Source of the DNA: Kiritimatiellia bacterium
GTDB lineage: Bacteria > Verrucomicrobiota > Kiritimatiellia > SLOV01
NCBI GenBank assembly: GCA_007132345.1
Contig: SLOV01000138.1
Location: 1 to 43,427, forward strand
Length of the DNA stretch: 43,427 nucleotides
Direction: 5' to 3'
A program made the translations under genes and the position numbers. Shown here one piece after another: positions 7,076 through 28,906 of this stretch. The notes under the pieces are model-generated. The model was not told the origin of the DNA. It saw nothing but the letters and a program-made list of their open reading frames with translations, and ran no database searches. Position 1 is the first letter of the stretch, and every line of letters begins with the position of its first letter.

Positions 7076-7771
7076 CTACATCGCGAGCACGTAGTACTGC
7101 GCGCCTAGCGGGAGCCACCTCAGCCATGATTCGGCCACACGCAGCGCGCGTAAGGCATGGGGAAAGAAGACGCGATATTTCACAGCCGTCGAGGCAAACC
7201 CAGCTTGTGCCAGGCGGTTGCACATGTCGGCCGATCGAATCAGTTGTGCGTTTTCGTCGAACGGGCATGTATGGACGGCCCGGCGCGTAAGCGGATGATA
7301 GGGGTTATGCTCGTACACCATGGCGAGGCCACCGGATAGGAGCACGCGGCGGAATTCGCGGAACAAATGGGTGTGCTCGTCAGGATCAATGTGGTGAAAG
7401 ACGCAGGCTGCGAATACGAGGTCAAAACTCGCGTCCGCAAATGGGATTTCCACGCCATCGAAGAGTTGGAATTTCGCTTCTCCAGGGAAACGGCTTTGGC
7501 CCAGTTCCAAGCTCTTGCGCGACACGTCCAGACAGGTGAGTTCGGCCGCAGGCAGATGCTTTCCAACAAACGGCACCGAGGCACCCACTCCAGCGCCGAA
7601 GTCCAGGATGCGTGGGGCTTTCACGGAGGGCTGCAGCCGGTTCCATTCCGCTGCCAGATCGCGAATCTTGTATTCGGCGAAATAGTCGGGATCTTCGCCG
7701 GTGATGGCGATGTTCGCCCGGTGCATGGACCGATACTCCGCGGCGAACCGGTCAAACTCTGCTTCGTCCAT
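7076..7771 (-). CDS. Class I SAM-dependent methyltransferase
   Basis: MDEAEFDRFAAEY start; ILDFGAGVG motif I; ACVFHHI; YEHNPYHPLTR. Confidence 0.85.
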   Translation of the reverse strand: MDEAEFDRFAAEYRSMHRANIAITGEDPDYFAEYKIRDLAAEWNRLQPSVKAPRILDFGAGVGASVPFVGKHLPAAELTCLDVSRKSLELGQSRFPGEAKFQLFDGVEIPFADASFDLVFAACVFHHIDPDEHTHLFREFRRVLLSGGLAMVYEHNPYHPLTRRAVHTCPFDENAQLIRSADMCNRLAQAGFASTAVKYRVFFPHALRALRVAESWLRWLPLGAQYYVLAM

Positions 7772-7785
7772 GAGCGGGGCACCCT

Positions 7786-8862
7786 CTACGCGGATGAATC
7801 GGGATCGCGTGCTGGCGGCGAATGGTGGGCGGACCACTGGCGCGGTGCGTCGAGAGCGCCGGCGGTCTCTTCTACAAAATAGCGGGGTCGCGATTTGACT
7901 TCGGCATAAATCTTCCCCAGGTACTCGCCCAGCATGCCGATGCAGAAAAGCTGGATGCCGCCGAGAAAGTACATGGGCAGCACAATCGACGCCCAGCCCG
8001 GTAAGACCCGATGGGTAATGAAGCGCGCCCAGAGCACCCACGCGGTCAGGCCCATGCTTACGAGGAAAACGACGAAACCGATCAGCGTGATGATGCGTAG
8101 CGGGATGACGGAAAACGATGTAATGCCGTCGAGGGCGAGAGCAACCATCTTCCTCAACGGATACTTGGATTCACCGGCAAGACGGGGGCTGCGGTTGTAG
8201 GTGACGATTTCGGATTTGAAGCCGATGAGGGGCACGATGCCGCGCAGAAAGAGATTTGTCTCATTATATTGTTTCAGGCACTCGATGGCACGCCTGCTCA
8301 TCAGCCGATAATCGGCATGGTTGTCGATCGACTCGGCCCCGAGAGCCGCCATGAGTTTGTAGAAGAGCGAGGCGGTCAGCCGCTTGAAGCGCTTGTCCGT
8401 CTCACGATGCTTCCGCACGCCATAGACAACATCGGCGCCGGCAAGAAAGCGATCGACCATGGCCTCGATAGCGGCGAGGTCGTCCTGCAGGTCGGCATCG
8501 ACCGTGACGAGCGCATCGCCTTCAGCGGTGAACAGGCCGGCGATCAGCGCATTCTGATGGCCGCGGTTGCGTGACAGTTTGATGCCGGTAATGCGCGGAT
8601 GGCTCGCGGCGTATTCCTTGATCAGCGCCCAGGTCCGGTCGCGGCTGCCATCATCCACAAAAAGCATCTGGCTGCTGTCCGCGATCTTGCCGGCGGCCAC
8701 CAGGTGGTCGAGCAGCGCGATGACGCGCTTGCAGGTCTCGGGAAGCACGTCTTGCTCGTTATAGCAGGGAATGATGACGCCAAGTTTCACCGGTTCGTCC
8801 GTGGGTGGCTGGCCGTGAATGGTCGCTGCGGATAGGGGAACTGTAACCGACGGCTTGTGCAT
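7786..8862 (-). CDS. GT2 glycosyltransferase, GtrB/polyprenol-phosphate glycosyltransferase-like
   Basis: IPCYNEQ, FVDDGSRD, LSRNRGHQNAL, DADLQD, two C-terminal TMs, GEYLGKIYAEVKSRPRY. Confidence 0.92.
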   Translation of the reverse strand: MHKPSVTVPLSAATIHGQPPTDEPVKLGVIIPCYNEQDVLPETCKRVIALLDHLVAAGKIADSSQMLFVDDGSRDRTWALIKEYAASHPRITGIKLSRNRGHQNALIAGLFTAEGDALVTVDADLQDDLAAIEAMVDRFLAGADVVYGVRKHRETDKRFKRLTASLFYKLMAALGAESIDNHADYRLMSRRAIECLKQYNETNLFLRGIVPLIGFKSEIVTYNRSPRLAGESKYPLRKMVALALDGITSFSVIPLRIITLIGFVVFLVSMGLTAWVLWARFITHRVLPGWASIVLPMYFLGGIQLFCIGMLGEYLGKIYAEVKSRPRYFVEETAGALDAPRQWSAHHSPPARDPDSSA

Positions 8863-10878: not shown

Positions 10879-11748
10879 ATGGTCGGTTTTCTGCGGTTCG
10901 AAATCGATGAGGGGATGGTGCTCAAGTTGGGCTATCCGTTTCTGCCACCGGACCCGGCCCAGTCCCCCAACTTTGAGCATATCTTTGGCGATCAGCTTCC
11001 CGTGGGCAGCGTGGTTCAGGTGTGGGATCAGACCGACAGATGGGTGGGCGTGGTCAAAGCATCGCGTTCGGGTTGGTGGCCGAGGGATGTCTATTTGAAT
11101 CCAGGTGATGGCGCTCGCCTGTATGCGGCAGCAGGGCGGGGGTCGCCATCTGCCTCGGTGCTGTTGATGGGCGAAGTGCCGGTGACGGAGTACCAGCCGG
11201 GAGATCCCTGCTTGGGCCCCATGATGACGATGCCCTTTGTGTCACATCCCTATCCGGAGCCGCTGCCGTTGCCGGAGTTGGATCGCGTCTTCGGTTTGCC
11301 CGGTGGCGCCATGGTGTTTGCGTGGGATTATCCGTTTCAGGGGTATTCTGTTTTCGCGAAGTCCCAGCGGGCCGGTTGGTCCCTGGATGCAGTCAGCTTT
11401 GTCATTGAGCCTGCAACGGCAGTCTGGGTCTCGGGCGGCGCGTGGCAGCAGTCCTGTTTGCCGTATGACCGCCCTTATGACTGGCCCACAACGGTGCTGC
11501 CCGGCTCGTCGGAGGGAGTGGAGATCTTGGGCATGGGCCTGACGGAGGAAGGTATCGAAATTCAGTGGACGGCCCCCGTGGATTCCAGCGTCTTCGGCAT
11601 TGAGGGCAGCAATCAGTGGCCTCTCCCTGACTGGATGCCCATGACAACGACCCATCGGCTGGTGCCTGGGACGAATGTGTGGATCGACACCGACACGGGC
11701 AGTACGACGATGCGCATCTATCGGGCATCGGGGTTTGTACTGCCCTGA
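10879..11748 (+). CDS. Hypothetical extracellular-type protein with internal duplication and shared C-terminal domain
   Basis: Two GYPF/HPYP...WD...GW...P units; C-terminus IQW...W...VWID...RIYR. Confidence 0.65.
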   Translation: MVGFLRFEIDEGMVLKLGYPFLPPDPAQSPNFEHIFGDQLPVGSVVQVWDQTDRWVGVVKASRSGWWPRDVYLNPGDGARLYAAAGRGSPSASVLLMGEVPVTEYQPGDPCLGPMMTMPFVSHPYPEPLPLPELDRVFGLPGGAMVFAWDYPFQGYSVFAKSQRAGWSLDAVSFVIEPATAVWVSGGAWQQSCLPYDRPYDWPTTVLPGSSEGVEILGMGLTEEGIEIQWTAPVDSSVFGIEGSNQWPLPDWMPMTTTHRLVPGTNVWIDTDTGSTTMRIYRASGFVLP

Positions 11749-11827
11749 GGAGGGCCGGCGTGAATCAGCCCTGAATGCCAGAAAATTGAGTTGTCACGGC
11801 GCTTGATTCAGGCTTTCATCTTTTTCA

Positions 11828-13207
11828 ATGTCTTCGCTTCTGACCTCTCCCCTGCTCGGCGCAACGCTGGCCGCACTCGCCGCCTTCGCTCCTGTCGCTC
11901 CCGACGCCCGCGCCGAGATTGCGCCTGCATTGCTCGATTTCCGGGAGGTTGTCCGCGACGCGAAAGACAAAGTCTTTCCCGCCGTCCTCTACGTTAAATG
12001 CCGCCGCGAGGCCTTGGAGCGGGGCCGCCAGGCTACCGCGGAGGTCGCCGGCAGTGGCGTCATCATTTCGCCCGACGGACTGGCCCTTTCGAATTGGCAT
12101 GTCGTCGAGAAGGCGCTCGAGGTGCGCTGCCTGCTCTCCGACGGGCGCGCCATGGATGCCACCATTCTGGGAACGGACAAATCCACGGACCTGGCACTGC
12201 TTCAACTCCATCTGCCCGAAGATGGGGCGGCCCTGCCCTATGCGGAATTAGGCGATTCGCGCCTGCTGACGGAAGGCGATTTTGTCATGGCCATGGGTGC
12301 GCCCTGGGGCCTCAACCGTTCTGTTTCACTGGGGGTGGTTTCCTGCGTCGACCGCTATCTGCCCGCCGCAAGTGAGTACAGCCTCTGGCTCCAGACCGAT
12401 GCCTCGATCAGTCCCGGTAACTCGGGTGGCCCGCTGGTGAACACCGACGGCGAGGTGATCGGCATCAACACGCGCGGCGCCATCATCGGCGGCGACCTCG
12501 GCTTCGCGGTGCCCAGCGAAACGATTCTCGAACTCCTTCCCCACTTTCGGCAACGGGGCGAAGTCGAGTGGGCCTGGACCGGGCTGCAGCTTCAGCCTCT
12601 GCGCGATTTCGAGCGCAACACCTACTTTGACGCGGAGGAGGGCGTGGTGGTTGCGGGTACCGATCCAGACAGCCCGGCCAGGCGCGCGGGGGTTCTAACC
12701 GGCGACCGCATCGTCGCACTGAATGGAACCCGCATCACGGCCTTGACCGCGGAAGGGCTGCCGGGGATCCGGCGCAAGTTCGGATTACTCCCCCCCGGCG
12801 AGCTGCTCCAGATCGAATTGCTCCGTGGCGAGCAGCCCATGGAGATTTCGTTCGCGCCGCGTGTGAAAGGCACCGTAGAGGGCGACCAGCTCGCCCTGCC
12901 GCGCTGGGACATGACCGTTCGCACCATCAATCAGTTTGCCAATCCCGGCCTCTACTTCCATCGCCAGGATGGCATCTTCCTTTACGGAATCCGACGCCCC
13001 GGCAATGCACAAAACGCTGGCTTTTCCTCCCGCGATATCCTGCTGGAAATCGAGGGACAGCCGGTGCAAACCCTCGAAGATGTTCAGCGGATTCATCAGA
13101 ATGCCATTGAGCAGATCGACGAGCGCCACCGCCTTCGCTTCACGGTGCTGCGAAACGGATTGCGCCGCGAGATCGTCCTCGACTTCTCCCGGGATTTCGA
13201 ACGCTGA
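11828..13207 (+). CDS. HtrA/DegP-like serine protease with two PDZ domains
   Basis: Signal peptide; GSGVII, SNWHVV (His), TDLALL (Asp), ISPGNSGGPLVN (Ser); PDZ motifs SPARRAGV and NAQNAGF. Confidence 0.92.
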   Translation: MSSLLTSPLLGATLAALAAFAPVAPDARAEIAPALLDFREVVRDAKDKVFPAVLYVKCRREALERGRQATAEVAGSGVIISPDGLALSNWHVVEKALEVRCLLSDGRAMDATILGTDKSTDLALLQLHLPEDGAALPYAELGDSRLLTEGDFVMAMGAPWGLNRSVSLGVVSCVDRYLPAASEYSLWLQTDASISPGNSGGPLVNTDGEVIGINTRGAIIGGDLGFAVPSETILELLPHFRQRGEVEWAWTGLQLQPLRDFERNTYFDAEEGVVVAGTDPDSPARRAGVLTGDRIVALNGTRITALTAEGLPGIRRKFGLLPPGELLQIELLRGEQPMEISFAPRVKGTVEGDQLALPRWDMTVRTINQFANPGLYFHRQDGIFLYGIRRPGNAQNAGFSSRDILLEIEGQPVQTLEDVQRIHQNAIEQIDERHRLRFTVLRNGLRREIVLDFSRDFER

Positions 13208-13254
13208 GTGATTTTGTTCCGCTTCCGGTCGACAACCCATCGAAAGGCCACACC

Positions 13255-15492
13255 ATGAACGAAAACTGCCACGCTACTTCCGTTCCGTCCCGTTGCGCCG
13301 CACCCGTTCGCGGGTTCGCAAGTTGCCTGCAAGCGATTTGCCTGGCATCGGTCCTGCTGCTCGCCGCGGGGGGCGCCGTGCGGGCGGAGGAAACGGCTGC
13401 GACATCAGGCGCCACGCAGCTCAAGATCGCGGAGGCATTGTCCCCTTCTGTCGTGCGGGTCGAATACACGCTCCGCTACGATGAAGGCGATGCCCCGCTC
13501 AGTCGCGGCTGGAACCAGCGCTGCCCCCGCTGCGGCAATTTCCACGGCGACCGGGTCGACCCCATCGTTCGGGACGAGCGACCCCTGGAGCGGGCCGGGT
13601 TCCTGCTCACTCCGACGAGCGTGGTCTCTCCCCACATCCTGGTGCACCCCCGCTTCATCGAAAGCATTGCCGTCACCTGGCGCGGCCATTCGATTCCGGC
13701 GCGGCCGGCCGGCTATGCCACGGAACATCGTGCCTTGCTGCTGGAACTTGATGAACCGATTCCGGGTGCCGAGCCGCTCGTCTTCGGCGCCGACCCCGAA
13801 GCGCCCCTCTTTGCGGCGTCGTTGGCTGAATCGGGCGGACAGTGGAATATCGGCGTGCAGCCCTTTGCGGAAACAGTTCTGCTCCGCGAGGATGGCGGCG
13901 CGCGGATCGGTCTGCCCGACGGTAGCGCCATCGTCGATGCCGAAGGGCGGGTGCTCGGCATCGCCATGGCCGAAGAACAAGCAATGAACGACCAGTGGCA
14001 TGGGTCGCCCGCCGATTGGGAGCAGGTTGCGGCCGCGGACATGGAGCGGCGCATCGAAGCGCACGCGGCCACCGTCGAGAAGCTTTTGCCGCGTGTCTCC
14101 CTGCATTTTCGCAGCCCGCGCGAATCCAGCGAAGACCCTTTTCAGAGCATGTATCGTGGTTTCGGAACCGACGATAGCAGCCCTACGGAACGCGAAGCCC
14201 ACGGCCTTCTGCTCCCTGATGGTCAGATCCTGATCCTCGCCAACCTGAGCGCCAGGGACACGGCCCGGCTGGAGCGTATTCGCGTGCACCTGCCCGGTCA
14301 GCCTCCCGCGTCGGCCTCTTTCGTGGCGAGCCTCTCCGATTATGGCGCACTGCTCGCACGCCTCGAAACACCTGGGCCCGCGCTCTCCTTTGCGGAAACA
14401 CCTGCTGAGGACCCGCAGGGGCGCCTGCTCCTCGCTTCTCATCTCGAAGTGCGCGGTGAACAGTTGCGTGCCTTTCACGAACCCGCGCGCGTGATCGAAA
14501 TGCGGAAAGGCCGCCGCGGCGCGCTTTTCCCGGAGCTTGCCGGCAACACCGCTGACATTTTTCTGTTCGACCTCGACAGCAATCTGCTCGCACTGCCCAT
14601 CGAAATACGCGAGCGCGCCGTGGGCCAGGAACGCAGATGGCGCTCCAGCGAGCGCGTGCTGACGCCTGCGCCCCTGCTGGCGGCCGTGCTGGCCGATCTC
14701 GATGCGCACATCGATACGGCCAATGTGCCCGTCGATCCGGAGGAAGAACTGCGTCTGGCGTGGATTGGCGTAGAATTGCAACCCCTCGACGCCGGTCTGG
14801 CCCGTGCCTACCAGGTGGCTGGTCGCACCGAGAGCGGCCGCACCGGGGCGCTGGTCACGCATGTCTATCCTGGATCGCCCGCCGAAGCAGCCGACATCCG
14901 TTCGGGGGATGTGCTGCTGCTGGTCAACGTCGAGGGGCTGCCAAGGCCATTCCCCGTGCAGATCGAGGAGGCGATGCATCGGGAAGCCTTCCCCTGGGAC
15001 GAAATCGATCAGGTCCCCGACGAGTACTTTCATTTTCTGCCTCAACCGTGGAGTTCCGCCGAAAACTCCTTTACGCGTTTCCTGACCGACCTCGGATTCG
15101 GACGGGAAGTGGAGATTGAAGGCATGCGCGATGGCGAACTCCTCCTGTACACCCTGCAGATCGTGGAAGGGCCACGCCATTACCAGGCCGCGCCGGAGTT
15201 CCGGTCCGAAGGCTTCGGGCTCACCGTCCGCGAGCTGACCTATGAAACGCGGCGCTTCTACCAGGCGGCCGATGACGGCCCTGGCGTGATCGTGGCCCGC
15301 ATCGAGCCAGGGTCGCCCGCCTCGACCGCGGGATTGAAGCCCTTCGAGTTGATCACGCACATCGACGACGAGCCCATTTTCACCGTCGACCGACTGCAGG
15401 CGCTGGAAGAGCAGGGCGGCGACCTGCGCCTCTCCGTTCAGCGCATGCATCAACTGCGCATCGTCGTCATGCGCCGCGTTGCGGGTTCATAG
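13255..15492 (+). CDS. Secreted PDZ-domain protein with degenerate trypsin-like regions
   Basis: Signal ending AVRA; AWIGVELQPL resembles AWTGLQLQPL of the neighbour; PDZ motifs VYPGSPAEAADI and IEPGSPASTAGL; no GNSGG. Confidence 0.8.
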   Translation: MNENCHATSVPSRCAAPVRGFASCLQAICLASVLLLAAGGAVRAEETAATSGATQLKIAEALSPSVVRVEYTLRYDEGDAPLSRGWNQRCPRCGNFHGDRVDPIVRDERPLERAGFLLTPTSVVSPHILVHPRFIESIAVTWRGHSIPARPAGYATEHRALLLELDEPIPGAEPLVFGADPEAPLFAASLAESGGQWNIGVQPFAETVLLREDGGARIGLPDGSAIVDAEGRVLGIAMAEEQAMNDQWHGSPADWEQVAAADMERRIEAHAATVEKLLPRVSLHFRSPRESSEDPFQSMYRGFGTDDSSPTEREAHGLLLPDGQILILANLSARDTARLERIRVHLPGQPPASASFVASLSDYGALLARLETPGPALSFAETPAEDPQGRLLLASHLEVRGEQLRAFHEPARVIEMRKGRRGALFPELAGNTADIFLFDLDSNLLALPIEIRERAVGQERRWRSSERVLTPAPLLAAVLADLDAHIDTANVPVDPEEELRLAWIGVELQPLDAGLARAYQVAGRTESGRTGALVTHVYPGSPAEAADIRSGDVLLLVNVEGLPRPFPVQIEEAMHREAFPWDEIDQVPDEYFHFLPQPWSSAENSFTRFLTDLGFGREVEIEGMRDGELLLYTLQIVEGPRHYQAAPEFRSEGFGLTVRELTYETRRFYQAADDGPGVIVARIEPGSPASTAGLKPFELITHIDDEPIFTVDRLQALEEQGGDLRLSVQRMHQLRIVVMRRVAGS

Positions 15493-15497
15493 CCTTA

Positions 15498-15677
15498 TAT
15501 GTGGAGTTCACCTCCCCGCTTTCTTCCGATTCGTGGCAGCGGGATGACGCACGCTTTTCGATTCTGGTAGAGCCCGACAGTCCGGACTTCGATCAGGTGT
15601 GGGTCGACGATGCCGAACCCCTTTCGCCCACCGGCGCCTATCGCCTGAAGGGCTACTTGCCCGAGTGGACAAAGTAA
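15498..15677 (+). pseudogene. Orphan C-terminal-domain fragment of a secreted protein
   Basis: Manual translation YVEFTSPLSSDSWQRDDARFSILVEPDSPDFDQVWVDDAEPLSPTGAYRLKGYLPEWTK*; resembles the C-terminus of 10879..11748; no signal peptide or upstream body. Confidence 0.5.
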
Positions 15678-15706
15678 CGGACAGAACCCGAGATCCCTCG
15701 TGTTTT

Positions 15707-16066
15707 TCAGCCGGCGCCCCTGATTCGAATCCCCTTCTCTTCCACGATCCACAGATGCTTTTTCAGCGTTTCAGTGGGAAGCAGGGAAACAAATCGGTGC
15801 GCGAGGGCCAGCACCGCCGGCTTTGACTGATCTTTCGACCTTATTACCACGATTCCGCCGAACTCTTCTGGAGGATAAGCGATGATGTTGGCAAAATCTG
15901 TATCAAGCGTGACGAATGCGCGAGATTCCGCCTGACACACAGAGGCTATGTCGGAATCGGGCTGGCCTCCCAAATCTTGATCAAGAACAGACATTGCGTT
16001 GTGGCCGACCGCGCGAAGAATCGCGCAGATTTCGAATGGAAGATTCTCGTCGACCTTGAAGTCCAA
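15707..16066 (-). CDS. DUF5615 PIN-like protein, putative toxin
   Basis: MDFKVDENLP, GHNA, D.DI, FVTLDTDF, GIVVIR. Confidence 0.88.
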   Translation of the reverse strand: MDFKVDENLPFEICAILRAVGHNAMSVLDQDLGGQPDSDIASVCQAESRAFVTLDTDFANIIAYPPEEFGGIVVIRSKDQSKPAVLALAHRFVSLLPTETLKKHLWIVEEKGIRIRGAG

Positions 16067-16074
16067 GGCCTACC

Positions 16075-16305
<231 letters not shown>

Positions 16306-16481
16306 TCAAACCTACCATGATTGGGGTGTCAGGGAAATCTCTTTGCATCCCCCGCGGTTCCTGCCTCCCTGTCCGCAACACACCTTCGCGTATCGACGGG
16401 CGCATGCCCGTCATGGAGGGGCGAGTTACACGAGCCCGCGAGCGGGTGGTCGTGGCTTTGAACCCATGCGATGGCGTTGAC

Positions 16482-16614
16482 CAGCAATTCTCAGTATGGC
16501 CCGGAACCAGGCCTTCGGGCCTGCTGAAGCAGGTACTACGAACCGTTTTTCGCCTAGTCTTCGCCCGTTTGTAGTCCCGCCTTCAGGCGGCAAGGGCCAT
16601 AATGAGAATTGCTG
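16482..16614. mobile_element. 133-bp MITE-like element carrying a REP doublet
   Basis: 21-bp terminal inverted repeats CAGCAATTCTCAGTATGGCCC / GGGCCATAATGAGAATTGCTG (1 mismatch); flanking 9-bp direct repeat GGCGTTGAC at 16473-16481 and 16615-16623. Confidence 0.8.
16520..16590. repeat. Inverted pair of GTAG-type REP-like hairpins inside the MITE
   Basis: 16520-16539 is the reverse complement of GTAGTACCTGCTTCAGCAGG; 16571-16590 is GTAGTCCCGCCTTCAGGCGG. Confidence 0.75.
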
Positions 16615-16992
16615 GGCGTTGACGGCGGCATCGTGCAAATCCGTCTCGTTGGCCTTACATTTCCTTTCGAGGCCCAGATAGTGTCCCCATGGATGCGATT
16701 CGCGTTGCCGGGCCGTCACGGCAACTCGCTGGCTATCCAGAGGAGAGAAGCCGTAGCGCGTCCAGCCCAAAACCGTCGTACGGTCTTGGCGGTCGCTCTG
16801 CTTTTTCGTTCGCCGCGGCTTGGCGGTCTTGGGTGCATGAGTGGGCATCGATCTCTCCAGTGCCATATTGCCCCTCCAAACGCGCCACATGGCTTCTCTT
16901 GTCAAGGCGGATGTGGAGCCGAAATCGCGGCCCAATGCCAATGGCAAGGTGTCCTGCCTGCAACGGAGCGGCTCCGCTTCCGGAGCCGGTGG

Positions 16993-17097
16993 TTAGGTGT
17001 AAGAGACCGAGCGTGAAATCTCAATGGCATGCAGGCGAAGCGCCTTGTGCAGGACAGGGTCGACATAAACAGTGGCTCGCTTTGTCAGTGTGCTCAT
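16993..17097 (-). pseudogene. Truncated CopG/ribbon-helix-helix antitoxin-like gene
   Basis: Manual translation MSTLTKRATVYVDPVLHKALRLHAIEISRSVSYT*; matches the N-terminal half of CopG-family antitoxins and stops early. Confidence 0.7.
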
Positions 17098-17101
17098 GTA
17101 A

Positions 17102-17263
17102 AAGAACGTCTTTGACGAGGGTGACCTGGCTCCCGATTCAGTTATTCAGGATTTCTTAATAACTGCCGCCGATGGGAAGGAATACCGGGGAAGACACAAC
17201 AACCTGGACCTCATCATTTCGGTGAGGCAGCTATCTATAGAAGACGCAAAAGGTTGTGCTTAA
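17102..17263 (+). pseudogene. RhuM-family fragment
   Basis: Manual translation KNVFDEGDLAPDSVIQDFLITAADGKEYRGRHNNLDLIISV resembles RhuM KNIF.EGEL...TAADGK.Y...YNLD.IISVG; no start codon and similarity is lost after ISV. Confidence 0.7.
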
Positions 17264-17318
17264 TCAGGATCTCATCAGAATGGCACTAAAATAAGGACGA
17301 TTTCGGATGGGACCTTTG

Positions 17319-17394
17319 CGGCTCACCGGGGACGGTTCGCCCTACCCACCAGGCACTTGCGCGGGAAGGTAGGGCGAAGCGTCTCGCTGAGCCG
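17319..17394. repeat. Second GTAG-type REP doublet (different family)
   Basis: 17319-17346 is the reverse complement of GGTAGGGCGAACCGTCCCCGGTGAGCCG; 17368-17394 is GGTAGGGCGAAGCGTCTCGCTGAGCCG. Confidence 0.75.
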
Positions 17395-17494
17395 TAATCT
17401 TGTTGGCGTTGACGGCGTCCCCCGTGAGGAGGGACGTTGTCCCACCAACGGGGGGACTCACGTCCGTATAACTCCGCCCTCCAGCTCAGAGGCC

Positions 17495-20371
17495 TTACTC
17501 CATGGAGAGAATGCGGTAGACGTGGTGAGGCGGTCCGACGGCATCGAACATGGTGTTGGTGGTGCCATCGCCGACGATCGATCCGCCAAGATTATTCCAA
17601 TCCGTGTCTTCACCCAGATCTTCAACAGCCCACTGCACCTGGTAGGTGACGCCATTGCTGGCAAACCAGGTGATGCCCACGCCCCGCTCCAGGTCCAAGA
17701 CCAGGGGCATCGGCCCAAAGGGCATGCCGGTCAGAAGCGAAGATTCTTCGCTGGCCCCGCCCGCGCCAATCGCGACGATCACATAGTAGTAGGTCTGACC
17801 ATTCAGGACGTCGGTATCGATGAACGTCAGATCGGACGTGGTGCCGATGGACTCAAAAGGCCCGGCCATGCTGGAGGCTCTCTTCACCTCGTAGGAGGTT
17901 GCAAAGGTGCTGGCCGACCAGCCCAACGAAACCTGAGAATCGCCAGCCAGTACCGATAGCCCGCCAGGACTCGCCGGGGCTGCGAGAATGGGGGTCGCGG
18001 AAACGGGGTCACTGTCGGGGCTCTCGCCAATCGCATTGAATGCGGACACAACATAGTAGTACGTCGTTCCGCCGAGAACGGTGTCGGTATAGCTCACGTT
18101 TGCCACGCTTGTGGTGGCGATAGGGTCGTACGGTCCGCCCATGTCGATGGCGCGCTTCACGTTGTAGCCGGTTGGCAAGCCGCCGGTGGCGGCGTTCCAG
18201 CTCAGCGAGACCGAGTTGGAGGCGGCTGTGGCGCTGAGCCCCGTAGGCGCATCGGGCGGAACAACGACCGCATCCACAACATCGACATACGTGTCGGCAA
18301 TACGAATCTCGTCGACCGTGATCTCGCCGCCACCCTGAACCTGCATCCCCACGCCGGAAATGGTTCCGACATCGAAGTTGGTAATCGTGGCGGCGGCAGG
18401 CACGCCGGGCGCCGGCTGATTCGCCGTCGGATTCACATAAACCGTTACGGTGTCGTTGTTGCCGGACGTATCGAAATCGATTCTCAAGACGATCAAGTAG
18501 GTGTCGCCGTAGGTGCCGAGTCCCGCGGTGGCAAGTAAACTTGCGCCCTGTGGCGCCGTGCCTACGGTGTTCATGGAACCCAGGCCGAGCTGTCCCTGCG
18601 TGCCGGAGACGGGACCCAGGCCAAAGCCGAAGAAGAGGCCCGTGCCGCCGTTCAAGAAGTAGACCCCGTTCATGTTACCACCGGGATTTGAGGGACTCGT
18701 CTGGTAGAGGAAACTGATCCACTTGGTTCCGCTGGAAAGCGGGGTGTCCAGGCTGACGGATTGCCGGCCGGCAGGGGTGCGCATCGCATTGTGGGACGTT
18801 GGGAGGCCGGGGTAGGTGAGACCGGTCGTAATCCAGCCTGCGACCCCGTTGTTCCAGACGCCAAATCCATCGGCCGTCGAAGGCGTGCCGTCAACCAGGT
18901 TGTCTTCGATGGGGTAGTTGAATGGTTCGTAAATGCCTGTGAAAACGGCCGGCGTGGCACTCACCTCGGCGGACTCATCGCTTTCTCCGGCCGCATTCAC
19001 GGCCGTCACGACATAGTAATAGGTTATGTCGTTCACGGCGGTGGCGTCATTGAAGCTGGTGGTAGGAGCGGCCGGGGTGCCAACGATGTCGAGGTACGGT
19101 CCTCCAGAGACGGTGGCGCGCCGCACATTGTAGCTGCTTGGGTTGCCTACAGCCGGGGCGGTCCAGTTCAATGCGACCTGGTTGTCACCCGCGGTGGCCG
19201 ACAATCCGGTCGGGGCAGTGGGCACACCCAGGGGCGGCGTGGCCGAGACAGGGGAGCTGTTGGCGCTCTCCCCGCCGCCACTGACCGCCGATACCACGTA
19301 GTAGTAGGTCACGTCACCAGTGACGTGATCCGTAAAGGTGACCGTCGGGACCGATGTGGCGCCAATGGTCGTATAGGGTCCGCCGCTGGAGGTGGCGCGC
19401 TTCACATTGTAGCTGACTGGGTTGCCGGTAGAGGCGGTCCAGCTCAGATTGACGGTGTTCGGCCCGGTCGAATCCACCTGCAAATCCGCCGGCGTCGCGG
19501 GAGCGGTCGCACCGACCTCGGGCGTCACGCTGGCCCACGTGGTGCCGAAGCGAATCTCGTCAGTCTGCACTGTAGCTCCGCCCAATGCGGTAAGGAAGGT
19601 CTGGATTCTATCCATGACGGTGTATGTGCCGCTCCATGTCCCGCTTGCGGCAGGCTGCGGAGCACCCGGGGTCGGATTGATCCAGATACTCCCGCTCTGA
19701 TAGTAGGTTCCACCAGCATTCGCATCGAACCGCACGACAATGAAGTAGGTGCTGTTAAAGCTGATGGTCTCGGACGCCGTGCCCAGAACGGTTCCGCTTC
19801 CGTTGACCACCGTGGCCACACCAAAGACTCCCGAGGCGGTCATTCCCATATAATAACCTTGATTGCTCCCCGCACCGTTATCCACGGCGAAACCCGCTCT
19901 GTTGGGCGAATAGGAGGGGGCGTTGTAGAGAAAGCTCACATAAACCGTGGGGGTCGTGGAGGGAAAGATTGCGGAGGCGAGATTGAGGCCGTGGTAAGGA
20001 ACGGCCGGGCTCCACTGCAAGCCGTTGCCCGAGGTCTGCAGGCCAGGGTATGTCAGACCTTCGACAATCATGGTTCCGGATCCACCCGAAAACCAGGTGC
20101 CCGCGAAGCCCCCGCCGGTGGTCGCGGTGGGGGTGCCTGTTGCCGTCGTGGGGTCCCCTGGGTTGAGTGGACCTAGCGGATAGTCAAAGGGCTCGTACGC
20201 GAGAATCGCGGCGCTTGCCACGCCTGCCACCACCAGCAGCGCCAGACCGGCGATCAGCGACGGCAGCGCACTGGCACGACGCACTCGAGCGACGGTCCCC
20301 TCAGGACGGAAAGGCATGGCGGCACCCGGTATCATTTGCTCTTCATTCTTCATCATGTTCACAACTCGCAA
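17495..20371 (-). CDS. Secreted fibronectin type III repeat protein; start probably a later Met
   Basis: Signal ending VASA; four FN3 units (V.L.W...Y.V.R...GGP...D.....YYYVV.A); two YEPF.YP...DEIR domains; shared C-terminal domain. Confidence 0.88.
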   Translation of the reverse strand: MRVVNMMKNEEQMIPGAAMPFRPEGTVARVRRASALPSLIAGLALLVVAGVASAAILAYEPFDYPLGPLNPGDPTTATGTPTATTGGGFAGTWFSGGSGTMIVEGLTYPGLQTSGNGLQWSPAVPYHGLNLASAIFPSTTPTVYVSFLYNAPSYSPNRAGFAVDNGAGSNQGYYMGMTASGVFGVATVVNGSGTVLGTASETISFNSTYFIVVRFDANAGGTYYQSGSIWINPTPGAPQPAASGTWSGTYTVMDRIQTFLTALGGATVQTDEIRFGTTWASVTPEVGATAPATPADLQVDSTGPNTVNLSWTASTGNPVSYNVKRATSSGGPYTTIGATSVPTVTFTDHVTGDVTYYYVVSAVSGGGESANSSPVSATPPLGVPTAPTGLSATAGDNQVALNWTAPAVGNPSSYNVRRATVSGGPYLDIVGTPAAPTTSFNDATAVNDITYYYVVTAVNAAGESDESAEVSATPAVFTGIYEPFNYPIEDNLVDGTPSTADGFGVWNNGVAGWITTGLTYPGLPTSHNAMRTPAGRQSVSLDTPLSSGTKWISFLYQTSPSNPGGNMNGVYFLNGGTGLFFGFGLGPVSGTQGQLGLGSMNTVGTAPQGASLLATAGLGTYGDTYLIVLRIDFDTSGNNDTVTVYVNPTANQPAPGVPAAATITNFDVGTISGVGMQVQGGGEITVDEIRIADTYVDVVDAVVVPPDAPTGLSATAASNSVSLSWNAATGGLPTGYNVKRAIDMGGPYDPIATTSVANVSYTDTVLGGTTYYYVVSAFNAIGESPDSDPVSATPILAAPASPGGLSVLAGDSQVSLGWSASTFATSYEVKRASSMAGPFESIGTTSDLTFIDTDVLNGQTYYYVIVAIGAGGASEESSLLTGMPFGPMPLVLDLERGVGITWFASNGVTYQVQWAVEDLGEDTDWNNLGGSIVGDGTTNTMFDAVGPPHHVYRILSME

Positions 20372-20383
20372 TCTGGATCACAT

Positions 20384-22564
20384 TCACGGCAACTCGATGA
20401 CGCGGTAGATTCTGTCTGTGTACGGACCAAGGGGATCGAACACGGTCTTGATGCTCCAATCGCCAATGACAACAGGCCCCACAGGCGTCCACTCGGTGTG
20501 TGAGCTCTCGGAATCTGTCCATTCCACCTGATAGGACGTACCGGCGGTGCTGGGCCAACTGATGCCAAACCCGTCTTCAGCAATACCTGCGACAAGGTTG
20601 GTTTCGAACGCCCGGCCACCGGAGTAGTAGATGTCATCCAGCTCAATTCCGGAAATCGGGCCATCCACACCCAGAATCTGGAACAGTTGGCTGACCTGGG
20701 TGAGGTCGATGTCGCTGGCAATGTCCGAAATCGGAATCTCGACGGCATGCCAATTGCCATCGCGCACAAACCCGTACGGATCATCACCCGGCGTGAATGG
20801 GATCCAGACCTGCCCGACGCCGGACGGTCCTGTATTGGGGCCCCACGGTGTGTCCGGCCCGATCACATTCCCACTCTTCAACCCCACATAGAACTTCACC
20901 TGAGAACTGGTTCTCATCGCAAAATTCAGTTTGCCGTTTGGATTGTCGAAGGCCTCGAGGTTGTATTTGACTGCGGGGGTGAAGGCGGCGCCGAACCAGC
21001 CCATCCCCGGCGCCGAGGCGAGGCTCAGGCTCTCATCGCCTTCGAATGGGGTCTGTGCAACAGGAAGAAGCGTATCCCCCCAGACAAAGAACTCACCGTC
21101 GACACCCAGTTCGTATTCGCCCGCAGTCATATGGGCTGCCGTTTCGGTAAAGACGCCCAGATTGCCGCCCGACGGTCTCGGCCGTTCAACGCTCGGCTCC
21201 CAGTACACATTATCGATGGATAGAGTCGTGGAAGCGGAAGCCGGATCGGCCGCGATCATAAAAATCTGGTGAATGGTGTGAAAGTCGATATTCATGTATC
21301 CGTTCAGCGGAACACTCACCGTTTGCCACTGACCATCGCGGGCAAAGCCAAGTCCGTCCGTCTCGTCGCCCACTATTTGCCAATATTCGCCGCCGCGTGA
21401 ACTCTTGATGCCGATTCTTATATCGTCGGTCAACGTGGTCTTGATATCGAAATGGAGGAACCCATCCGAATAGTTCCTCATATTGCGGAAGTTGGGGAGA
21501 AAGACGCCCATGCCAAACCAGTCGCCCGCGGCGATATCAAACGACCACACCTCGGTGCCTTCGGAGGGCGTCGCAGGAACCGCCGCCTCGACCATGTTGT
21601 TCCACGTGAAGAGCGCTGCCTCGTATCCATAATCGAAGGCCGGGTCTTCAGGATCCCCATAAACAAGGGCATTGTCGACCGGGGTGGTTTCCGTAAACAC
21701 GCCAAACAGCCCGTCTTCCTCCGCGTCCTCCCCAAGAAACACTTCCGTGAAGCCATTATCTTCAACACGGATCCAATCCACCTTCAGTTGAGCGGGAAAC
21801 GTAGCGGTCACGGCTTCCGGCGTGGTGATATCTGTATAACCATCGGGTCCGCCCCAGTCGCCCACGGCGAGGTTCAAGACGATGAAGTGGGGCTGGTGAA
21901 ACTCCGTCATGTAGTCCGCCGTGATGTCCCAGCTTACGATCTCCTGACCGTCAAAATAGAAGGTCATCTCCGTGGGGGTCCATGAGAGTCTGTAGAGGTG
22001 ATAGTCCAGGGTCAGATCTACAGGCGCATCGCCCCAGAATACATTGCTCTGCTTTTCGCCGGCGGCATTCGAGAAATGCATCGCGGTGTTGAATCTGCGC
22101 TGTTGCATCCCCTCTGCAATTCCACTCTTGGAGCCGATCTCGATAATGTCGACTTCCCCAGCATCCGGCCAGGGAACGCCAGGAAAGTTGTTCCCCAGCA
22201 TCCAGAAGGCCGTCCACAAACCATCTGCCGTATTCGGCATTTTGATTCGGGCTTCGATGTCGCCATACCTGAATGCGAAACGCCCCTGCGTAAGCATGCG
22301 GGCCGAGGTGAATGCACTTCCGAAGTAGTCTTCACGCAGCGCCTGGATGACCAGACTCCCATCTTCGATAAACGAGTTGGCCGATCGGGCCGTGTTGTAT
22401 TCCATCTGGCCGTTGCCGAAGCCCCAGTTCCCCACATCCCAGATCCATGTCTCGGTATCGATTTCGGGCCCGTCGAATTCTTCTGACCAGACGATGGTGG
22501 CGCGTGCCGGCAAACTCGTGAGAAGCAGCACGGCAAAACAGAGGATGCGAACTTTGATATCCAT
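20384..22564 (-). CDS. Secreted GH16 glycoside hydrolase (laminarinase-like) with two putative carbohydrate-binding modules
   Basis: Signal peptide; WSEEFDG, FTSARM, LWTAFWMLG, WPDAGEVDIIE (ExDxxE), LNLAVG; two repeated GVFTET...WFG...GxKS...RDG.W modules. Confidence 0.9.
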   Translation of the reverse strand: MDIKVRILCFAVLLLTSLPARATIVWSEEFDGPEIDTETWIWDVGNWGFGNGQMEYNTARSANSFIEDGSLVIQALREDYFGSAFTSARMLTQGRFAFRYGDIEARIKMPNTADGLWTAFWMLGNNFPGVPWPDAGEVDIIEIGSKSGIAEGMQQRRFNTAMHFSNAAGEKQSNVFWGDAPVDLTLDYHLYRLSWTPTEMTFYFDGQEIVSWDITADYMTEFHQPHFIVLNLAVGDWGGPDGYTDITTPEAVTATFPAQLKVDWIRVEDNGFTEVFLGEDAEEDGLFGVFTETTPVDNALVYGDPEDPAFDYGYEAALFTWNNMVEAAVPATPSEGTEVWSFDIAAGDWFGMGVFLPNFRNMRNYSDGFLHFDIKTTLTDDIRIGIKSSRGGEYWQIVGDETDGLGFARDGQWQTVSVPLNGYMNIDFHTIHQIFMIAADPASASTTLSIDNVYWEPSVERPRPSGGNLGVFTETAAHMTAGEYELGVDGEFFVWGDTLLPVAQTPFEGDESLSLASAPGMGWFGAAFTPAVKYNLEAFDNPNGKLNFAMRTSSQVKFYVGLKSGNVIGPDTPWGPNTGPSGVGQVWIPFTPGDDPYGFVRDGNWHAVEIPISDIASDIDLTQVSQLFQILGVDGPISGIELDDIYYSGGRAFETNLVAGIAEDGFGISWPSTAGTSYQVEWTDSESSHTEWTPVGPVVIGDWSIKTVFDPLGPYTDRIYRVIELP

Positions 22565-22965: not shown

Positions 22966-23001
22966 GCCTTCAGGCGGTAAGAGCCATACTGAGAATTGCT
23001 G
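22966..23001. repeat. Partial second copy of the MITE right end
   Basis: GCCTTCAGGCGGTAAGAGCCATACTGAGAATTGCTG matches 16579-16614 at 33 of 36 positions. Confidence 0.75.
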
Positions 23002-23032: not shown

Positions 23033-23905
23033 TCAGGTGATATTCGGGCGATGATCCAGCGTTTCGAGGATTTCTTCCATTAACAAATGCTGGGAGATCG
23101 ACTCCTCAAGAGAGGGCAAGCAGCAGCTTCCTGTATCCAGGATCTCGCCCACGATACCGCCAATGAGTTCCGACATGTAAGGGAACTTGCTCAAGACCGT
23201 GTCGCCCTGTTTGATACTGGCGTAGTCAAACAGGTAAACCGTTCCATCTACTCGGATCTCCTGGACACCCACGACGCTGTCATCGCCCCGATCGATAAGC
23301 CTGAAACGTTTAGTGCCATCTTTGTCTTCAAAGACCAGTTCCCCATAGATCTCCTCATAGCCGGCTCTCTTGCTGGGAAAAACCTTAAGAACCTTCGTGT
23401 CGCGTCCCACTTGGAGGTGGCTGATCTGCATCTGTCTCTTAAAGACATCAATCCAATGGACTGCATTGCACGCCAGCCCCCAATCTGACCCGATCAATTC
23501 CACCGATTGGGCCTCTTGCTGGAACATGCAATCGAACGTTCCGCTGCCATACAGCCATTGGTTCACAAATGTGGGAACCCGCTTCAGGGAAAGACATGCT
23601 TCAAACTCCGCCCTGGACCTGAACAGATACTTCTCCAGAATGACATAGCTGGGTTCGAGTTCCAGGCAACGTTTGTAGAGCGCAAGACGGGGCTCGCAGG
23701 AGGTCGCGACGACGCAGAGGTCCATCGGCTCGCGAATGTCGTCCAGGGAGGAACAGCGCGTGACCTCACCGAGGTCCTGCCGTTCCAACTCCTGGAGGCG
23801 AGCCGGAGCGTCAACAAGAAAGAGGTGCGCATCGGGAAACGTCCTGGCGATGCCCTGCGCGTACCTCAGGCCGATATTGCCCACTCCAACGATACAGATC
23901 TTCAT
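23033..23905 (-). CDS. NAD(P)-binding oxidoreductase, Gfo/Idh/MocA-like
   Basis: MKICIVGVGNIG Rossmann motif, ILEKY, CNAVHWID. Confidence 0.75.
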   Translation of the reverse strand: MKICIVGVGNIGLRYAQGIARTFPDAHLFLVDAPARLQELERQDLGEVTRCSSLDDIREPMDLCVVATSCEPRLALYKRCLELEPSYVILEKYLFRSRAEFEACLSLKRVPTFVNQWLYGSGTFDCMFQQEAQSVELIGSDWGLACNAVHWIDVFKRQMQISHLQVGRDTKVLKVFPSKRAGYEEIYGELVFEDKDGTKRFRLIDRGDDSVVGVQEIRVDGTVYLFDYASIKQGDTVLSKFPYMSELIGGIVGEILDTGSCCLPSLEESISQHLLMEEILETLDHRPNIT

Positions 23906-24762
23906 GTCATGTTTTCCTGCATCCAGACATGGATGCGGCGATGCTCCGATAGCGATGGCAGCCTCCCCGGGCCGCCCTGGATGAGGTCATCGATCAGCTC
24001 GCCCAATCCGGGTTTGTATGGGGTGTGTTCATATTCCAGGGGACGGATGATGGGCCGATACGACCTGACAGGAATCTCGTCATCCGCTTCCCGCACTTCC
24101 ATGCCTTCGGCAATGGAGAACATCTCGAGCGGCTTGGCTTCATGGACGCGCCCGTCATCAGCGTAGAAGCGTATGGAAAAATTCTCGTGAGATCCATAGT
24201 TCATGTTGATGACGAGGGGCACCCCGCTGTCGTTCGACAAGAAGAAGCTGGGCGAAGAACTCCCAATTCGTGTCGCCGGCCCAAAGGGTCCAGCAAGGTA
24301 CCACAGCAGGTCAATGACGTGAATGCTCTGGGTAATCAGGGCATCGACGCTTCTTTCCGGAATGGTCGCAATGATTTTAACGATCTTTTCCGTCTCCATG
24401 ACCCCCTTCATGAAAGGAACCCAGTAATAGTAGCGCCGGTTCATGAGCAGGTAGATATCCCTGGCTGTGTCATACGTCGGACTGTGGGCGTAAGGCTTCT
24501 CGCAATAGATGTTACCCTCCAGCCTGCTGCACACGTCCTCATGGGACTCGATATTCGTGCAGACGAGCCAATCGGTGACATCGCTGGAAATCTCCGCCAG
24601 CGTCTCAACCTCCAGCTCTGGAAACATTGCCCGAAAAGACGCCACATTTGCTGAGGTCAGGTCTCTGCTGAAAATTCGCGGCCGGTTCCCCTTTGAGAGC
24701 AATACCTTGCAGTATTCTTTCGCCATGTATGCGCAGCCCACAATTCCCCATCTATTTTTCAC
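23902..24762 (-). CDS. Divergent Gfo/Idh/MocA-like oxidoreductase
   Basis: GIVGCAYMA, YCEKP, MNRRY, SIHVIDL; ATGA overlap with next gene. Confidence 0.7.
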   Translation of the reverse strand: MKNRWGIVGCAYMAKEYCKVLLSKGNRPRIFSRDLTSANVASFRAMFPELEVETLAEISSDVTDWLVCTNIESHEDVCSRLEGNIYCEKPYAHSPTYDTARDIYLLMNRRYYYWVPFMKGVMETEKIVKIIATIPERSVDALITQSIHVIDLLWYLAGPFGPATRIGSSSPSFFLSNDSGVPLVINMNYGSHENFSIRFYADDGRVHEAKPLEMFSIAEGMEVREADDEIPVRSYRPIIRPLEYEHTPYKPGLGELIDDLIQGGPGRLPSLSEHRRIHVWMQENMT

Positions 24763-24774
24763 TATACTTTCTTC

Positions 24775-26253
24775 CTATGCAGTGGTTGGAGCAATCTCCG
24801 CGAGCTCCTCGATGAATATTTCGACGATGTGAGAGATTTCTTCGTCGGTCAAACTGAACGAAGAGGGAAGACAGATTGCGTTTGCCGAGAGATAGGTGGA
24901 AACCGGATACGTGCCATGCGCAAATTCGCGGTACGGGTCCATCAGGTGCAAGGGATAAAAGCCGGGGCGCGAATCAACACCACGATGCCCCAAGTGCGCG
25001 AGGAGAAGGTCGCGCCCACTCTCTCCATATCCATCGAGGATGATCGTGTATAGCCAATAGGAGTTTTCTGACCAGCTATTCTTCGGCAGCAGGGAAATGC
25101 CCTGGCAACCCGAGAGGAGCTGGTCGTAGGTCTGAAAGATGACCTTCCTGCGGTGAAGCAACTCTTCGATACGTTCCATCTGGGCAACGCCGACGGCTGC
25201 CTGCATGTTCGTCATCCTGAAGTTGAAGCCCGCAACGTCGTGCCAATATTTCTTTGTCTTGCTCATCCCATGATCCCGCAGGATCCGGGCGCGGTCCGTC
25301 ATTTCATCATCTTTGAAGACCACCATCCCGCCTTCACCGGTGGTGACACCCTTGTTGGCAAAGAAACTGAAGCAGGTGGCGTCACCGTCCAGTCCGACAC
25401 GCCGGTTCTTGTAGCAGGCCCCCAGTGCTTCGGCGCAGTCCTCGATAACAAAAATGCCTGCCTGCGCAGCGATTTCCATGATCTCGTCGATTCGTGCGGG
25501 CTGCCCGTAGATGTGTACCGGCATCACGGCCTTCGTCCGCGGCGTGATGAGTCTTCGTAACTCCTCCAGATCGATGGTCCAGGTATCCCGCTCGACGTCG
25601 GCCAGCACGGGGGTGGCCCCTGCGTGTATGATGGCATTGATGCTGGCGGCAAACGTGAAGTTGGGCACGATGACTTCATCGCCACGACCAATGCCTAACG
25701 TATTCAGCGCCAGGTGCAGGGCCACCGTCCCATTGGACACGGCAATGGCGTGCCCCCCGCCCAGGTAATCATTGAAGGCCTTCTCGAAGAGCCCGATGAA
25801 CCTTCCTTGAGAAGAGATCCAGCCGCTCGTGACGCATTCAAGGACGTTGCTGATCTCCTGCTCGCCAATATTGGGTTCAAGCACCATGAAGTGCTTGATC
25901 CGTTCGCGCGTCGAGTAATCCACAACGCGCTGGTTGGCATCCAGCAGAGGGATACAACGCAGGGTCTGCTCGAAGAGATCCCAGATCTCCGAAATCTCAC
26001 AATCATACGGCAACGAATGAGGGGCGTGATTGTAATAGGGCGAGTCCACCGTCATCGTGTCGTCCAGCTCGACGCCCGTCAGAAGTGCACGCCGCGCATC
26101 GCCGTCGGTAAAGACACCGATCAGTCTGCGGTCTGCGTCCACAAGAAATACGATGCCCAGTGTGTTGGCTTGAATCACTTCCAGCACATCCCGAAAGGTT
26201 GCAGGGAGCGTGACCAGGAGGCTTTCCAGGGGGATATGTGTTCGGGTAGGCAT
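24775..26253 (-). CDS. CBS-domain + DegT/DnrJ/EryC1/StrS aminotransferase (perosamine synthase-like)
   Basis: N-terminal CBS pair (LIGVFTDGDARRAL); SGWISSQG, SNGTVAL, IEDCAEALG, SFFANKGVTTGEGG, NFRMTNMQAA. Confidence 0.9.
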   Translation of the reverse strand: MPTRTHIPLESLLVTLPATFRDVLEVIQANTLGIVFLVDADRRLIGVFTDGDARRALLTGVELDDTMTVDSPYYNHAPHSLPYDCEISEIWDLFEQTLRCIPLLDANQRVVDYSTRERIKHFMVLEPNIGEQEISNVLECVTSGWISSQGRFIGLFEKAFNDYLGGGHAIAVSNGTVALHLALNTLGIGRGDEVIVPNFTFAASINAIIHAGATPVLADVERDTWTIDLEELRRLITPRTKAVMPVHIYGQPARIDEIMEIAAQAGIFVIEDCAEALGACYKNRRVGLDGDATCFSFFANKGVTTGEGGMVVFKDDEMTDRARILRDHGMSKTKKYWHDVAGFNFRMTNMQAAVGVAQMERIEELLHRRKVIFQTYDQLLSGCQGISLLPKNSWSENSYWLYTIILDGYGESGRDLLLAHLGHRGVDSRPGFYPLHLMDPYREFAHGTYPVSTYLSANAICLPSSFSLTDEEISHIVEIFIEELAEIAPTTA

Positions 26254-26263
26254 TGTACTCGAC

Positions 26264-27127
26264 TCATTGATGGCAAGGTTGGGGCTGCCGTTTTGACTCG
26301 CTAAGTTCTTGTTGCTGTTTCAGTTGATGCATCCCGCAGCCGTAGACCTCAATCGAGACATAATCGACGTCTGATTTCAGGTGCGGCCAGAACCACGCGT
26401 CTTCGTCGAACGGTTGGTTCGAATCCTCTCGTCCATCATTGTCGCTGAGATGATAGCCGGTGATTCGTTCGTGGCATTCGTCGAACATCCCAACGGGGTC
26501 GAAGTGTAAGGAGTTTGCCGATACCTTCAGGTGCGCCACATCGATCAATTGACCAACCCGCTGTGGGAGCAGCCCCAGGATCTGCTGACACTCCAGCGGA
26601 TCGCACATCAACAATGGGTTGTCCGGGAACTCAAGAGCATTGCGTGCGGAAAGCACGTTATTCTCAATCATGAGAGTGATTCCGAGCGATTCGGCAGTCT
26701 CGTTCAGACGACATACGCGGCTGACGAATACCTCAATACATCGATCGCGATCGAAAAGGCTCCGATTCGGGATACGATTGCCCAACTCATCGAGCTTCGG
26801 ATCAAGCAGGAAGCCGGCGTGAAAACTATATCGATCCGCGCCAAGCGCGACGCACCAGCGGAGCGCCTGCTCGACATGCGATATGCTCCTTTCGCCGATG
26901 ACGGTATCTAACGATGCCAGGTTAAAGACAAAGGGGTCCGGCGGTGGGGGGAAGTAATTATGAATCTGAAAATGAGCAGCCGGCGTCAACGCCTGTAGAT
27001 CGCGCAGCAGTGTTTCCGAATAGGCACCTCCCGAGAGTTCAATGAACGGCATGCCGGCACTGAGCAGTTCTGTGGAGACGGCATCCCCGGCTCGATCATG
27101 AAAACCGCCTGTGGAAACATAAGTCAT
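26264..27127 (-). CDS. Sugar phosphate isomerase/epimerase-type TIM barrel protein
   Basis: HNYFP, SFHAG, IENNV, DVAHL, HLSDNDG, terminal SIEV. Confidence 0.75.
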   Translation of the reverse strand: MTYVSTGGFHDRAGDAVSTELLSAGMPFIELSGGAYSETLLRDLQALTPAAHFQIHNYFPPPPDPFVFNLASLDTVIGERSISHVEQALRWCVALGADRYSFHAGFLLDPKLDELGNRIPNRSLFDRDRCIEVFVSRVCRLNETAESLGITLMIENNVLSARNALEFPDNPLLMCDPLECQQILGLLPQRVGQLIDVAHLKVSANSLHFDPVGMFDECHERITGYHLSDNDGREDSNQPFDEDAWFWPHLKSDVDYVSIEVYGCGMHQLKQQQELSESKRQPQPCHQ

Positions 27128-28882: not shown

Positions 28883-28906
28883 GGTCCTAGACCCTGTAAA
28901 CCCATC

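Follow-up and report, generated by a model that had tools for sequence, protein, structure and literature searches.

The question raised by this locus is why exported proteins with little else in common should end in the same short segment. The locus lies on a stretch of 43,427 nucleotides (hereafter the window), which is contig SLOV01000138.1 of the Kiritimatiellia bacterium assembly GCA_007132345.1 and contig C396 of a genome bin of 3.53 Mb (410 contigs, 91.5% complete). The PheT protein of this genome has its nearest relatives, at 48-65% identity, among metagenome-assembled genomes of Kiritimatiellae and Verrucomicrobiota. The original prediction for the window was that a glycoside hydrolase of family 16 (GH16), an FN3 protein and a protein of 289 amino acids (aa) share a C-terminal domain (CTD), possibly the address tag of an export or surface-attachment pathway. 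The CTD proved to be a distinct, very large and uncatalogued FN3-like family, which holds a near-absolute C-terminal position on diverse exported proteins of the Verrucomicrobiota. Its role is tentatively read here as that of a handle retaining these proteins at the cell surface. The three genes and their relevant parts are located in the window as follows.

20384..22564, minus strand: GH16 family glycoside hydrolase gene (726 aa; long open reading frame; Pfam Glyco_hydro_16 at E 1e-18)
22499..22564, minus strand: signal-peptide-like N-terminus of the GH16 protein (MDIKVRILCFAVLLLTSLPARA...), called by our own hydrophobicity and charge heuristic and not by SignalP
20387..20581, minus strand: CTD of the GH16 protein (aa ~662-725, ending ...RIYRVIELP-stop; profile E 5.6e-16, one residue before the stop)
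17495..20371, minus strand: gene of the exported FN3 protein (958 aa), adjoining the GH16 gene (Pfam fn3 at E 3.5e-21, three stretches)
17498..17689, minus strand: CTD of the FN3 protein (aa ~895-957, ending ...HVYRILSME-stop; profile E 1e-14, one residue before the stop)
10879..11748, plus strand: gene of the 289-aa protein, without a Pfam or NCBIfam match
11521..11745, plus strand: probable divergent CTD of the 289-aa protein (aa 215-289, ending ...MRIYRASGFVLP-stop), placed by hmmsearch and hhalign

The GH16 protein has a signal-peptide-like N-terminus, a catalytic domain (aa 66-265), a middle beta-rich region and the terminal CTD, and several of its closest 120 homologues are called GH16 or beta-glucanase by their sources. 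Close homologues are assigned there to Pontiellaceae bacterium B1224, Puniceicoccales bacterium CK1056 and Tichowtungia sp. The FN3 protein comprises two uncharacterised domains of ~230 aa, each followed by two canonical FN3 domains, and has four YYYV F-strand motifs; the CTD comes last. Within-genome searches covered all 39,788 stop-to-stop open reading frames (ORFs). When the tails of the two proteins were used as phmmer queries, each retrieved the other (E 1e-8 and 4e-9), and the shared segment of ~65 aa is thus not a chance resemblance. The last ~65 residues of both proteins are uncovered by any Pfam or NCBIfam model. The 289-aa protein is a probable, divergent member of the family, given a full-length but weak alignment of its C-terminus with the family profile (hmmsearch E 0.028, 15.5 bits) and an hhalign probability of 84% (E 7e-6). 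An orphan fourth copy, which had been proposed at 15498-15677, was rejected (hmmsearch E 31; hhalign probability 12.6%, second half only). That segment lies in a plus frame different from the frame of the upstream PDZ gene, and is at best a decayed remnant.

An iterated profile run over the genome showed a larger family than first seen, with 42 copies at the cut-off of E<=0.01, including a strong set of 37 at E<1e-8. The rough consensus of the CTD is v.i.W.s..G..Y.leyt.dL....W..l...pGtG....l.D......rfYRv.v.lP-stop. The strict C-terminal position that the original prediction implied was borne out: the CTD ends 0-10 residues before the stop codon in 40 of 42 copies, and 20 of 36 tails have proline as the final residue. 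The same holds for the best 20 matches across 15 other genomes, every one of which lies 0-4 residues from the stop codon, with tails such as YRVKVEVP. Two copies depart from this position. One, a strong copy on contig C241, precedes a propeller-like repeat region of 341 residues, and the other is a weak N-terminal match on a DUF1800 protein. The C241 carrier (1589-8191), a beta-helix protein, holds the only strong internal copy of the genome; its aa 1797-2201 contain a thrombospondin-type-3 (TSP3) repeat and the CTD and then ~340 aa with six propeller-like 'LAxSPxGxPxxxY' repeats. Every carrier in this genome has a single copy.

The carriers are exo-enzymes and other exo-proteins of many unrelated families, as expected from the diverse cargo first noticed. 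They include peptidases (S8 subtilase, M12B peptidases), glycosidases (GH31, GH57, three GH16 and several GH13 amylases/pullulanases with CBM48/53/20), EEP nucleases, an esterase, and LamG, LTD, FG-GAP and CotH proteins. The claim that carriers have signal peptides and lack a transmembrane anchor held as far as a crude heuristic goes. By this measure of hydrophobicity and charge, a signal-peptide-like start is present in 28 of the 30 carriers with a complete N-terminus (a further 12 are open at a contig end), compared with 421 of 1532 control ORFs of at least 400 aa. Furthermore, a [DN]P.[DV]P motif lies directly upstream of the CTD in 19 of 37 copies, against 34 of 20,000 background windows. 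It is the end of a thrombospondin-type-3-like repeat, and at least eight carriers have a Pfam TSP3_bac match immediately upstream of the tail. This linker, in the form 'TDPxDPxS', is presumably calcium-binding.

The family extends well beyond this genome. In a library of 1.84 billion proteins, 38,132 cluster representatives carry the CTD at E<=0.001. Among the best 150 of these, a set biased to multi-copy proteins, there are often 2-10 tandem copies, and in 126 the last copy lies no more than 12 residues from the protein end. Where the motif could be recognised in a terminal copy (120 cases), the end comes 4-7 residues past the arginine of the YR motif in 115, and the last residue is proline in 75. 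The nearest ESM Atlas clusters are unnamed 'hypothetical proteins' of Verrucomicrobiota (65-72 aa). Of 21 genomes from the same class, 20 have matches to the profile (2-123 per genome). A phylum-wide sample gave matches at E<=1e-5 in 74 of 201 Verrucomicrobiota genomes, with whole families lacking any. Among the Planctomycetota, 1 of 101 sampled genomes had a match. These estimates of range depend on a profile that derives from a single genome and may miss distant members. The profile also had no match in single genomes of Ignavibacteriaceae, Gemmatimonadetes, Sumerlaeota and Planctomycetota. The domain had been expected throughout the Planctomycetes-Verrucomicrobia-Chlamydiae group; on present sampling, its range is the Verrucomicrobiota, including Kiritimatiellae, and is not group-wide.

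The fold of the CTD is predicted to be a variant of the FN3 sandwich. AlphaFold2, run on the family alignment, gave a confident six-stranded sandwich (pLDDT 86.9). A Foldseek search of the PDB returned nothing below E 0.1, and in an exhaustive VIA-align comparison with the PDB the top 50 rows were nearly all FN3 domains (Z 5.1-7.0, the range of common arrangements). Comparison by hhalign with five genuine FN3 domains, four of them from the window's own FN3 protein, gave E 1.1e-4 and a probability of 57%, with the tail placed on columns 10-75 of 100. In this alignment the YRV of the tail falls on the YYYV motif in strand F of FN3, and nothing in the tail lies opposite the FN3 FG loop or G strand. 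The CTD model and FN3 (PF00041) share the sandwich topology, the B-strand tryptophan, the C-strand tyrosine and the F-strand tyrosine-corner YxV. However, the modelled CTD has six strands (A, B, C, C', E, F) where FN3 has seven (A, B, C, C', E, F, G), it is nearly always the last domain with a fixed xVxP-COOH tail, and the Pfam fn3 profile matches none of 37 copies at E<=10. A two-copy relative was modelled as two six-stranded units joined by a 7-residue linker (pLDDT 92.2). Since both units have six strands, the absence of a G strand appears to characterise the family as a whole, internal copies included. The same model led us to reject the idea that internal copies borrow a G strand from the linker as a donor strand. 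The CTD is therefore modelled as an FN3-like sandwich of six strands, without a G strand, whose chain stops just past the tyrosine corner of strand F (FYRVxVxP-COOH).

Of the simple explanation that the segment is an ordinary FN3 module or a known sorting domain, the predicted FN3-like fold agrees, yet the segment matches neither Pfam fn3 nor any sorting-domain model. The family is regarded as distinct from FN3 because the canonical FN3 domains of the window's own FN3 protein are internal and reach only E 6 with the family profile. The profile does also match canonical FN3 arrays in the global search (e.g., representative P0062). A complex prediction with two CTD copies, which addressed self-association, gave a score of 0.06 and a mark of 0.42, and is neither support nor counter-evidence.

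Pfam and NCBIfam models, including those for PEP-CTERM and for the CTD of type IX secretion systems (T9SS), showed no consistent family among the 37 tails at E<=10. The closest parallel is the type A T9SS CTD of Bacteroidota (Por_Secre_tail, PF18962 / TIGR04183). It too is small, all-beta and located at the very C-terminal end of unrelated, signal-peptide-bearing exo-proteins, with tens to more than 100 copies per genome on dispersed carrier genes. T9SS CTDs are not known to occur more than once per protein, whereas the six-stranded, FN3-like CTD described here, which lacks a G strand, forms tandem arrays in other lineages. PF18962 matches none of the 37 CTDs at E<=10 and gave no match in this genome or in three CTD-rich relatives. 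The same search found at least 150 in an Ignavibacteriaceae control genome, and the tail is thus not a T9SS CTD by sequence. No T9SS CTD was among the listed rows of the Foldseek and VIA-align searches, which does not exclude a relationship. The translocon component SprA/Sov (TIGR04189) had no match in this genome, but none in the control genomes either.

A second parallel is the type I dockerin (PF00404), which likewise sits, as a non-catalytic module, at the end of diverse exo-enzymes, has calcium-binding, aspartate-rich motifs before or beside it, and takes the same position in GH16 orthologues of Planctomycetota-type sources. However, the dockerin is a duplicated helical F-hand and the CTD is all-beta, and PF00404 matches no CTD. 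We know of no cohesin-like partner for the CTD. The genome also contains a PEP-CTERM/exosortase system, with 15 PEP-CTERM tails (PF07589) on other, small ORFs and three exosortase homologues (PF09721). PEP-CTERM is likewise a C-terminal tag on exported proteins of the same genome, but it consists of ~24 aa with a transmembrane helix and a basic tail, whereas the CTD is a folded soluble domain without a transmembrane segment. PF07589 was found on no CTD-bearing ORF, and the CTD tails end in ...YRVxVxP without a hydrophobic helix. A search for Verru_Chthon cassette A, which had no positive control, gave no match.

Other export-type genes in the genome are three secretins and 20 prepilin-type genes. 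Of the latter, three are no more than 700 nt away from a carrier gene, where 0.24 were expected (a post hoc comparison). These carrier-abutting genes with a GFxxxE motif are at C351:1594, C59:3217 and C409:10217, and those on C59 and C409 are homologous (~265 aa). A pseudopilin link was considered and dropped, as such a motif was present in none of 20 downstream 2-kb stretches of carriers in relatives. No description of the domain was found in the literature, where the search covered mostly titles and abstracts, and the accessible part of one preprint mentions Verrucomicrobiota only for PEP-CTERM (Haft, 2023; 10.1101/2023.06.07.544157).

Homologues of the carriers reveal that the tail can be exchanged. 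Among the closest 120 homologues of the GH16 protein, 99 carry the CTD, and all 99 carry it at the terminus. Seven have a dockerin-like tail instead (three of them flagged PF00404 by precomputed annotation, and one named Sedimentisphaerales by its source) and ten have a CBM4_9-like end domain. Of the remainder, two stop right after the core, one looks frameshifted and one has a divergent copy. PF26113, which appears in the precomputed annotation of these homologues, is not the CTD, being present on two proteins without it (P0259, P0266) and absent from the CTD-bearing P0243. Similarly, the seven closest of 64 homologues of the M12 peptidase carry the CTD, and the others have dockerin-like, transmembrane-plus-arginine or other end modules. 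Many M12 homologues from other organisms have a different conserved tail, ...PGVG(I/L)VEVYE(I/V)xP. The CTD is therefore one of several appendages that can replace one another, and the catalytic core also occurs in proteins that lack it.

For the function of the CTD, the reading that we favour, while giving it slightly less than an even chance, is a non-covalent surface-retention handle. It fits best because tandem arrays occur, because the tail is exchanged with dockerin-like and binding modules, and because no dedicated machinery was detected. Carriers would first be exported by Sec and fold, after which the CTD would act as a common handle that binds one and the same glycan or protein component of the envelope. 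The exo-enzymes would thereby be kept on or near the cell surface. The CTD would work like dockerins, SLH domains and other terminal anchors, and not like a cleaved translocation signal. Where other lineages have tandem copies, avidity would be increased, and the final proline may protect the exposed end of the strand from carboxypeptidases.

Several observations weigh against a retention handle. The analysis yielded neither a ligand or receptor nor any other binding partner. When 1046 ORFs lying no more than 6 kb from ~40 carrier genes were clustered, no dedicated neighbour recurred; the clusters are all generic (NAD-epimerases, ABC ATPases, and GspE/FHA genes on two contigs), and the largest neighbour family, with five members on four contigs, is a generic epimerase. 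In this genome every carrier has just one CTD, so avidity cannot be the rule here. Simple binding modules seldom show so near-absolute a terminal position or so fixed a distance to the stop, and both features suit a recognition tag just as well. The exchange of tails among orthologues shows modularity, not function.

Another reading is a generic accessory beta-sandwich, either a divergent FN3-type spacer or a carbohydrate- or ligand-binding module, with no role in targeting. Under this explanation, which is somewhat unlikely but the stronger of the alternatives, the C-terminal bias would come from easy shuffling of modules at the 3' end of genes, helped by the conserved linker that precedes 19 of the 37 copies. 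The FN3-like fold, the remote profile similarity to genuine FN3 and the cross-matches to canonical FN3 arrays are as expected of such a module. The tandem arrays, which resemble those of other Ig/FN3 repeats, and the exchange for CBM-like modules in GH16 orthologues also agree with it. However, the canonical FN3 domains of the very same protein are internal and barely register with the profile. The terminal position in 40 of 42, 20 of 20 and 99 of 99 cases, with a fixed tail of 4-7 residues ending in proline, is also unexpected from shuffling alone. The breadth of the cargo bears on the ligand, as the presence of peptidases, nucleases and esterases makes a single substrate-type carbohydrate unlikely.

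The same fixed tail length and terminal position, together with diverse cargo bearing signal-peptide-like N-termini, would suit a secretion or sorting signal. The folded CTD would then be recognised by an outer-membrane translocon or attachment machinery of Verrucomicrobiota that has so far gone unrecognised, and possibly removed by a sortase-like peptidase, by analogy with the T9SS CTDs of Bacteroidota. The number of matches per genome in class relatives is comparable to that of T9SS CTDs in the control. The two tail families are also mutually exclusive in the genomes tested, with no PF18962 in four Kiritimatiellae and no match of the CTD profile in the control. We nevertheless consider this explanation improbable. 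Tandem arrays are unlike secretion signals, and the catalytic core does not need the tag, because GH16 orthologues exist without a tail or with dockerin- or CBM-like ones. Furthermore, no recurrent machinery gene lies near the carriers (the pilin-like adjacency of three carriers was unreplicated), and known sorting domains do not match the CTD in sequence. In its boldest form, the CTD would mark up to ~120 substrates per genome for an outer-membrane export or surface-attachment system that is peculiar to Verrucomicrobiota and as yet undescribed, a functional counterpart of the T9SS, to which it might dock via its open F-strand edge (e.g., by beta-strand complementation with a receptor). This is an equally long shot. 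The address-tag idea of the original prediction therefore fared unevenly, as terminal position, cargo, signal peptides and the lack of a known-family match agree with it, and the FN3-like fold, tandem arrays, tail exchange and the failure to find machinery do not.

The rest of the window contains several other features. Downstream of the 289-aa protein are two adjacent HtrA/DegP-like genes (11828-15492, plus strand). The first encodes a protein of 459 aa with Trypsin_2 and PDZ domains. The second encodes a protein of 745 aa with PDZ domains only and no protease-domain match, which may be a degenerate or non-catalytic paralogue. A toxin-antitoxin-like DUF433 / DUF5615 pair (15707-16302, minus strand; 75 aa and 119 aa) lies between the PDZ protein and a repeat-rich stretch. 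This stretch, at 16400-17490 downstream of the FN3 gene (also 22966-23001), is gene-poor and contains several short dispersed repeats. A repeat unit of ~133 bp at 16481-16615 recurs in more than 100 places on ~90 contigs at 85-94% identity, and further units are ~117 bp (17278-17394) and ~80 bp (17404-17484) long. These dispersed repeats look like intergenic elements of the miniature inverted-repeat transposable element (MITE) or repetitive extragenic palindromic (REP) type; an Rfam search over 15400-17600 gave no family at gathering score. Adjoining the GH16 gene on the other side is a large surface-polysaccharide cluster (23033-42866). It encodes a NeuB-type nonulosonic acid synthase, a CMP-sugar cytidylyltransferase, a DegT aminotransferase and a Wzx-like flippase, together with a GNVR/AAA chain-length regulator, a Wzm/Wzt ABC exporter, and several methyltransferases and GT2 enzymes.

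Among the major degraders of complex and sulfated polysaccharides are Kiritimatiellae and other Verrucomicrobiota. To our knowledge, no mechanism has been established by which their very large enzyme sets are exported and retained at the surface. A tail that is common to ~40 exo-proteins in this genome and to 38,132 representatives worldwide, and that is in no curated library tested, offers a testable handle on this export and retention. The CTD would allow the surface and secreted proteome to be predicted from sequence, is a candidate fusion tag for display, and marks where a receptor or machinery should be sought. If the CTD is only a structural module, it would still be a family missing from current annotation, an FN3 fold that ends at strand F.

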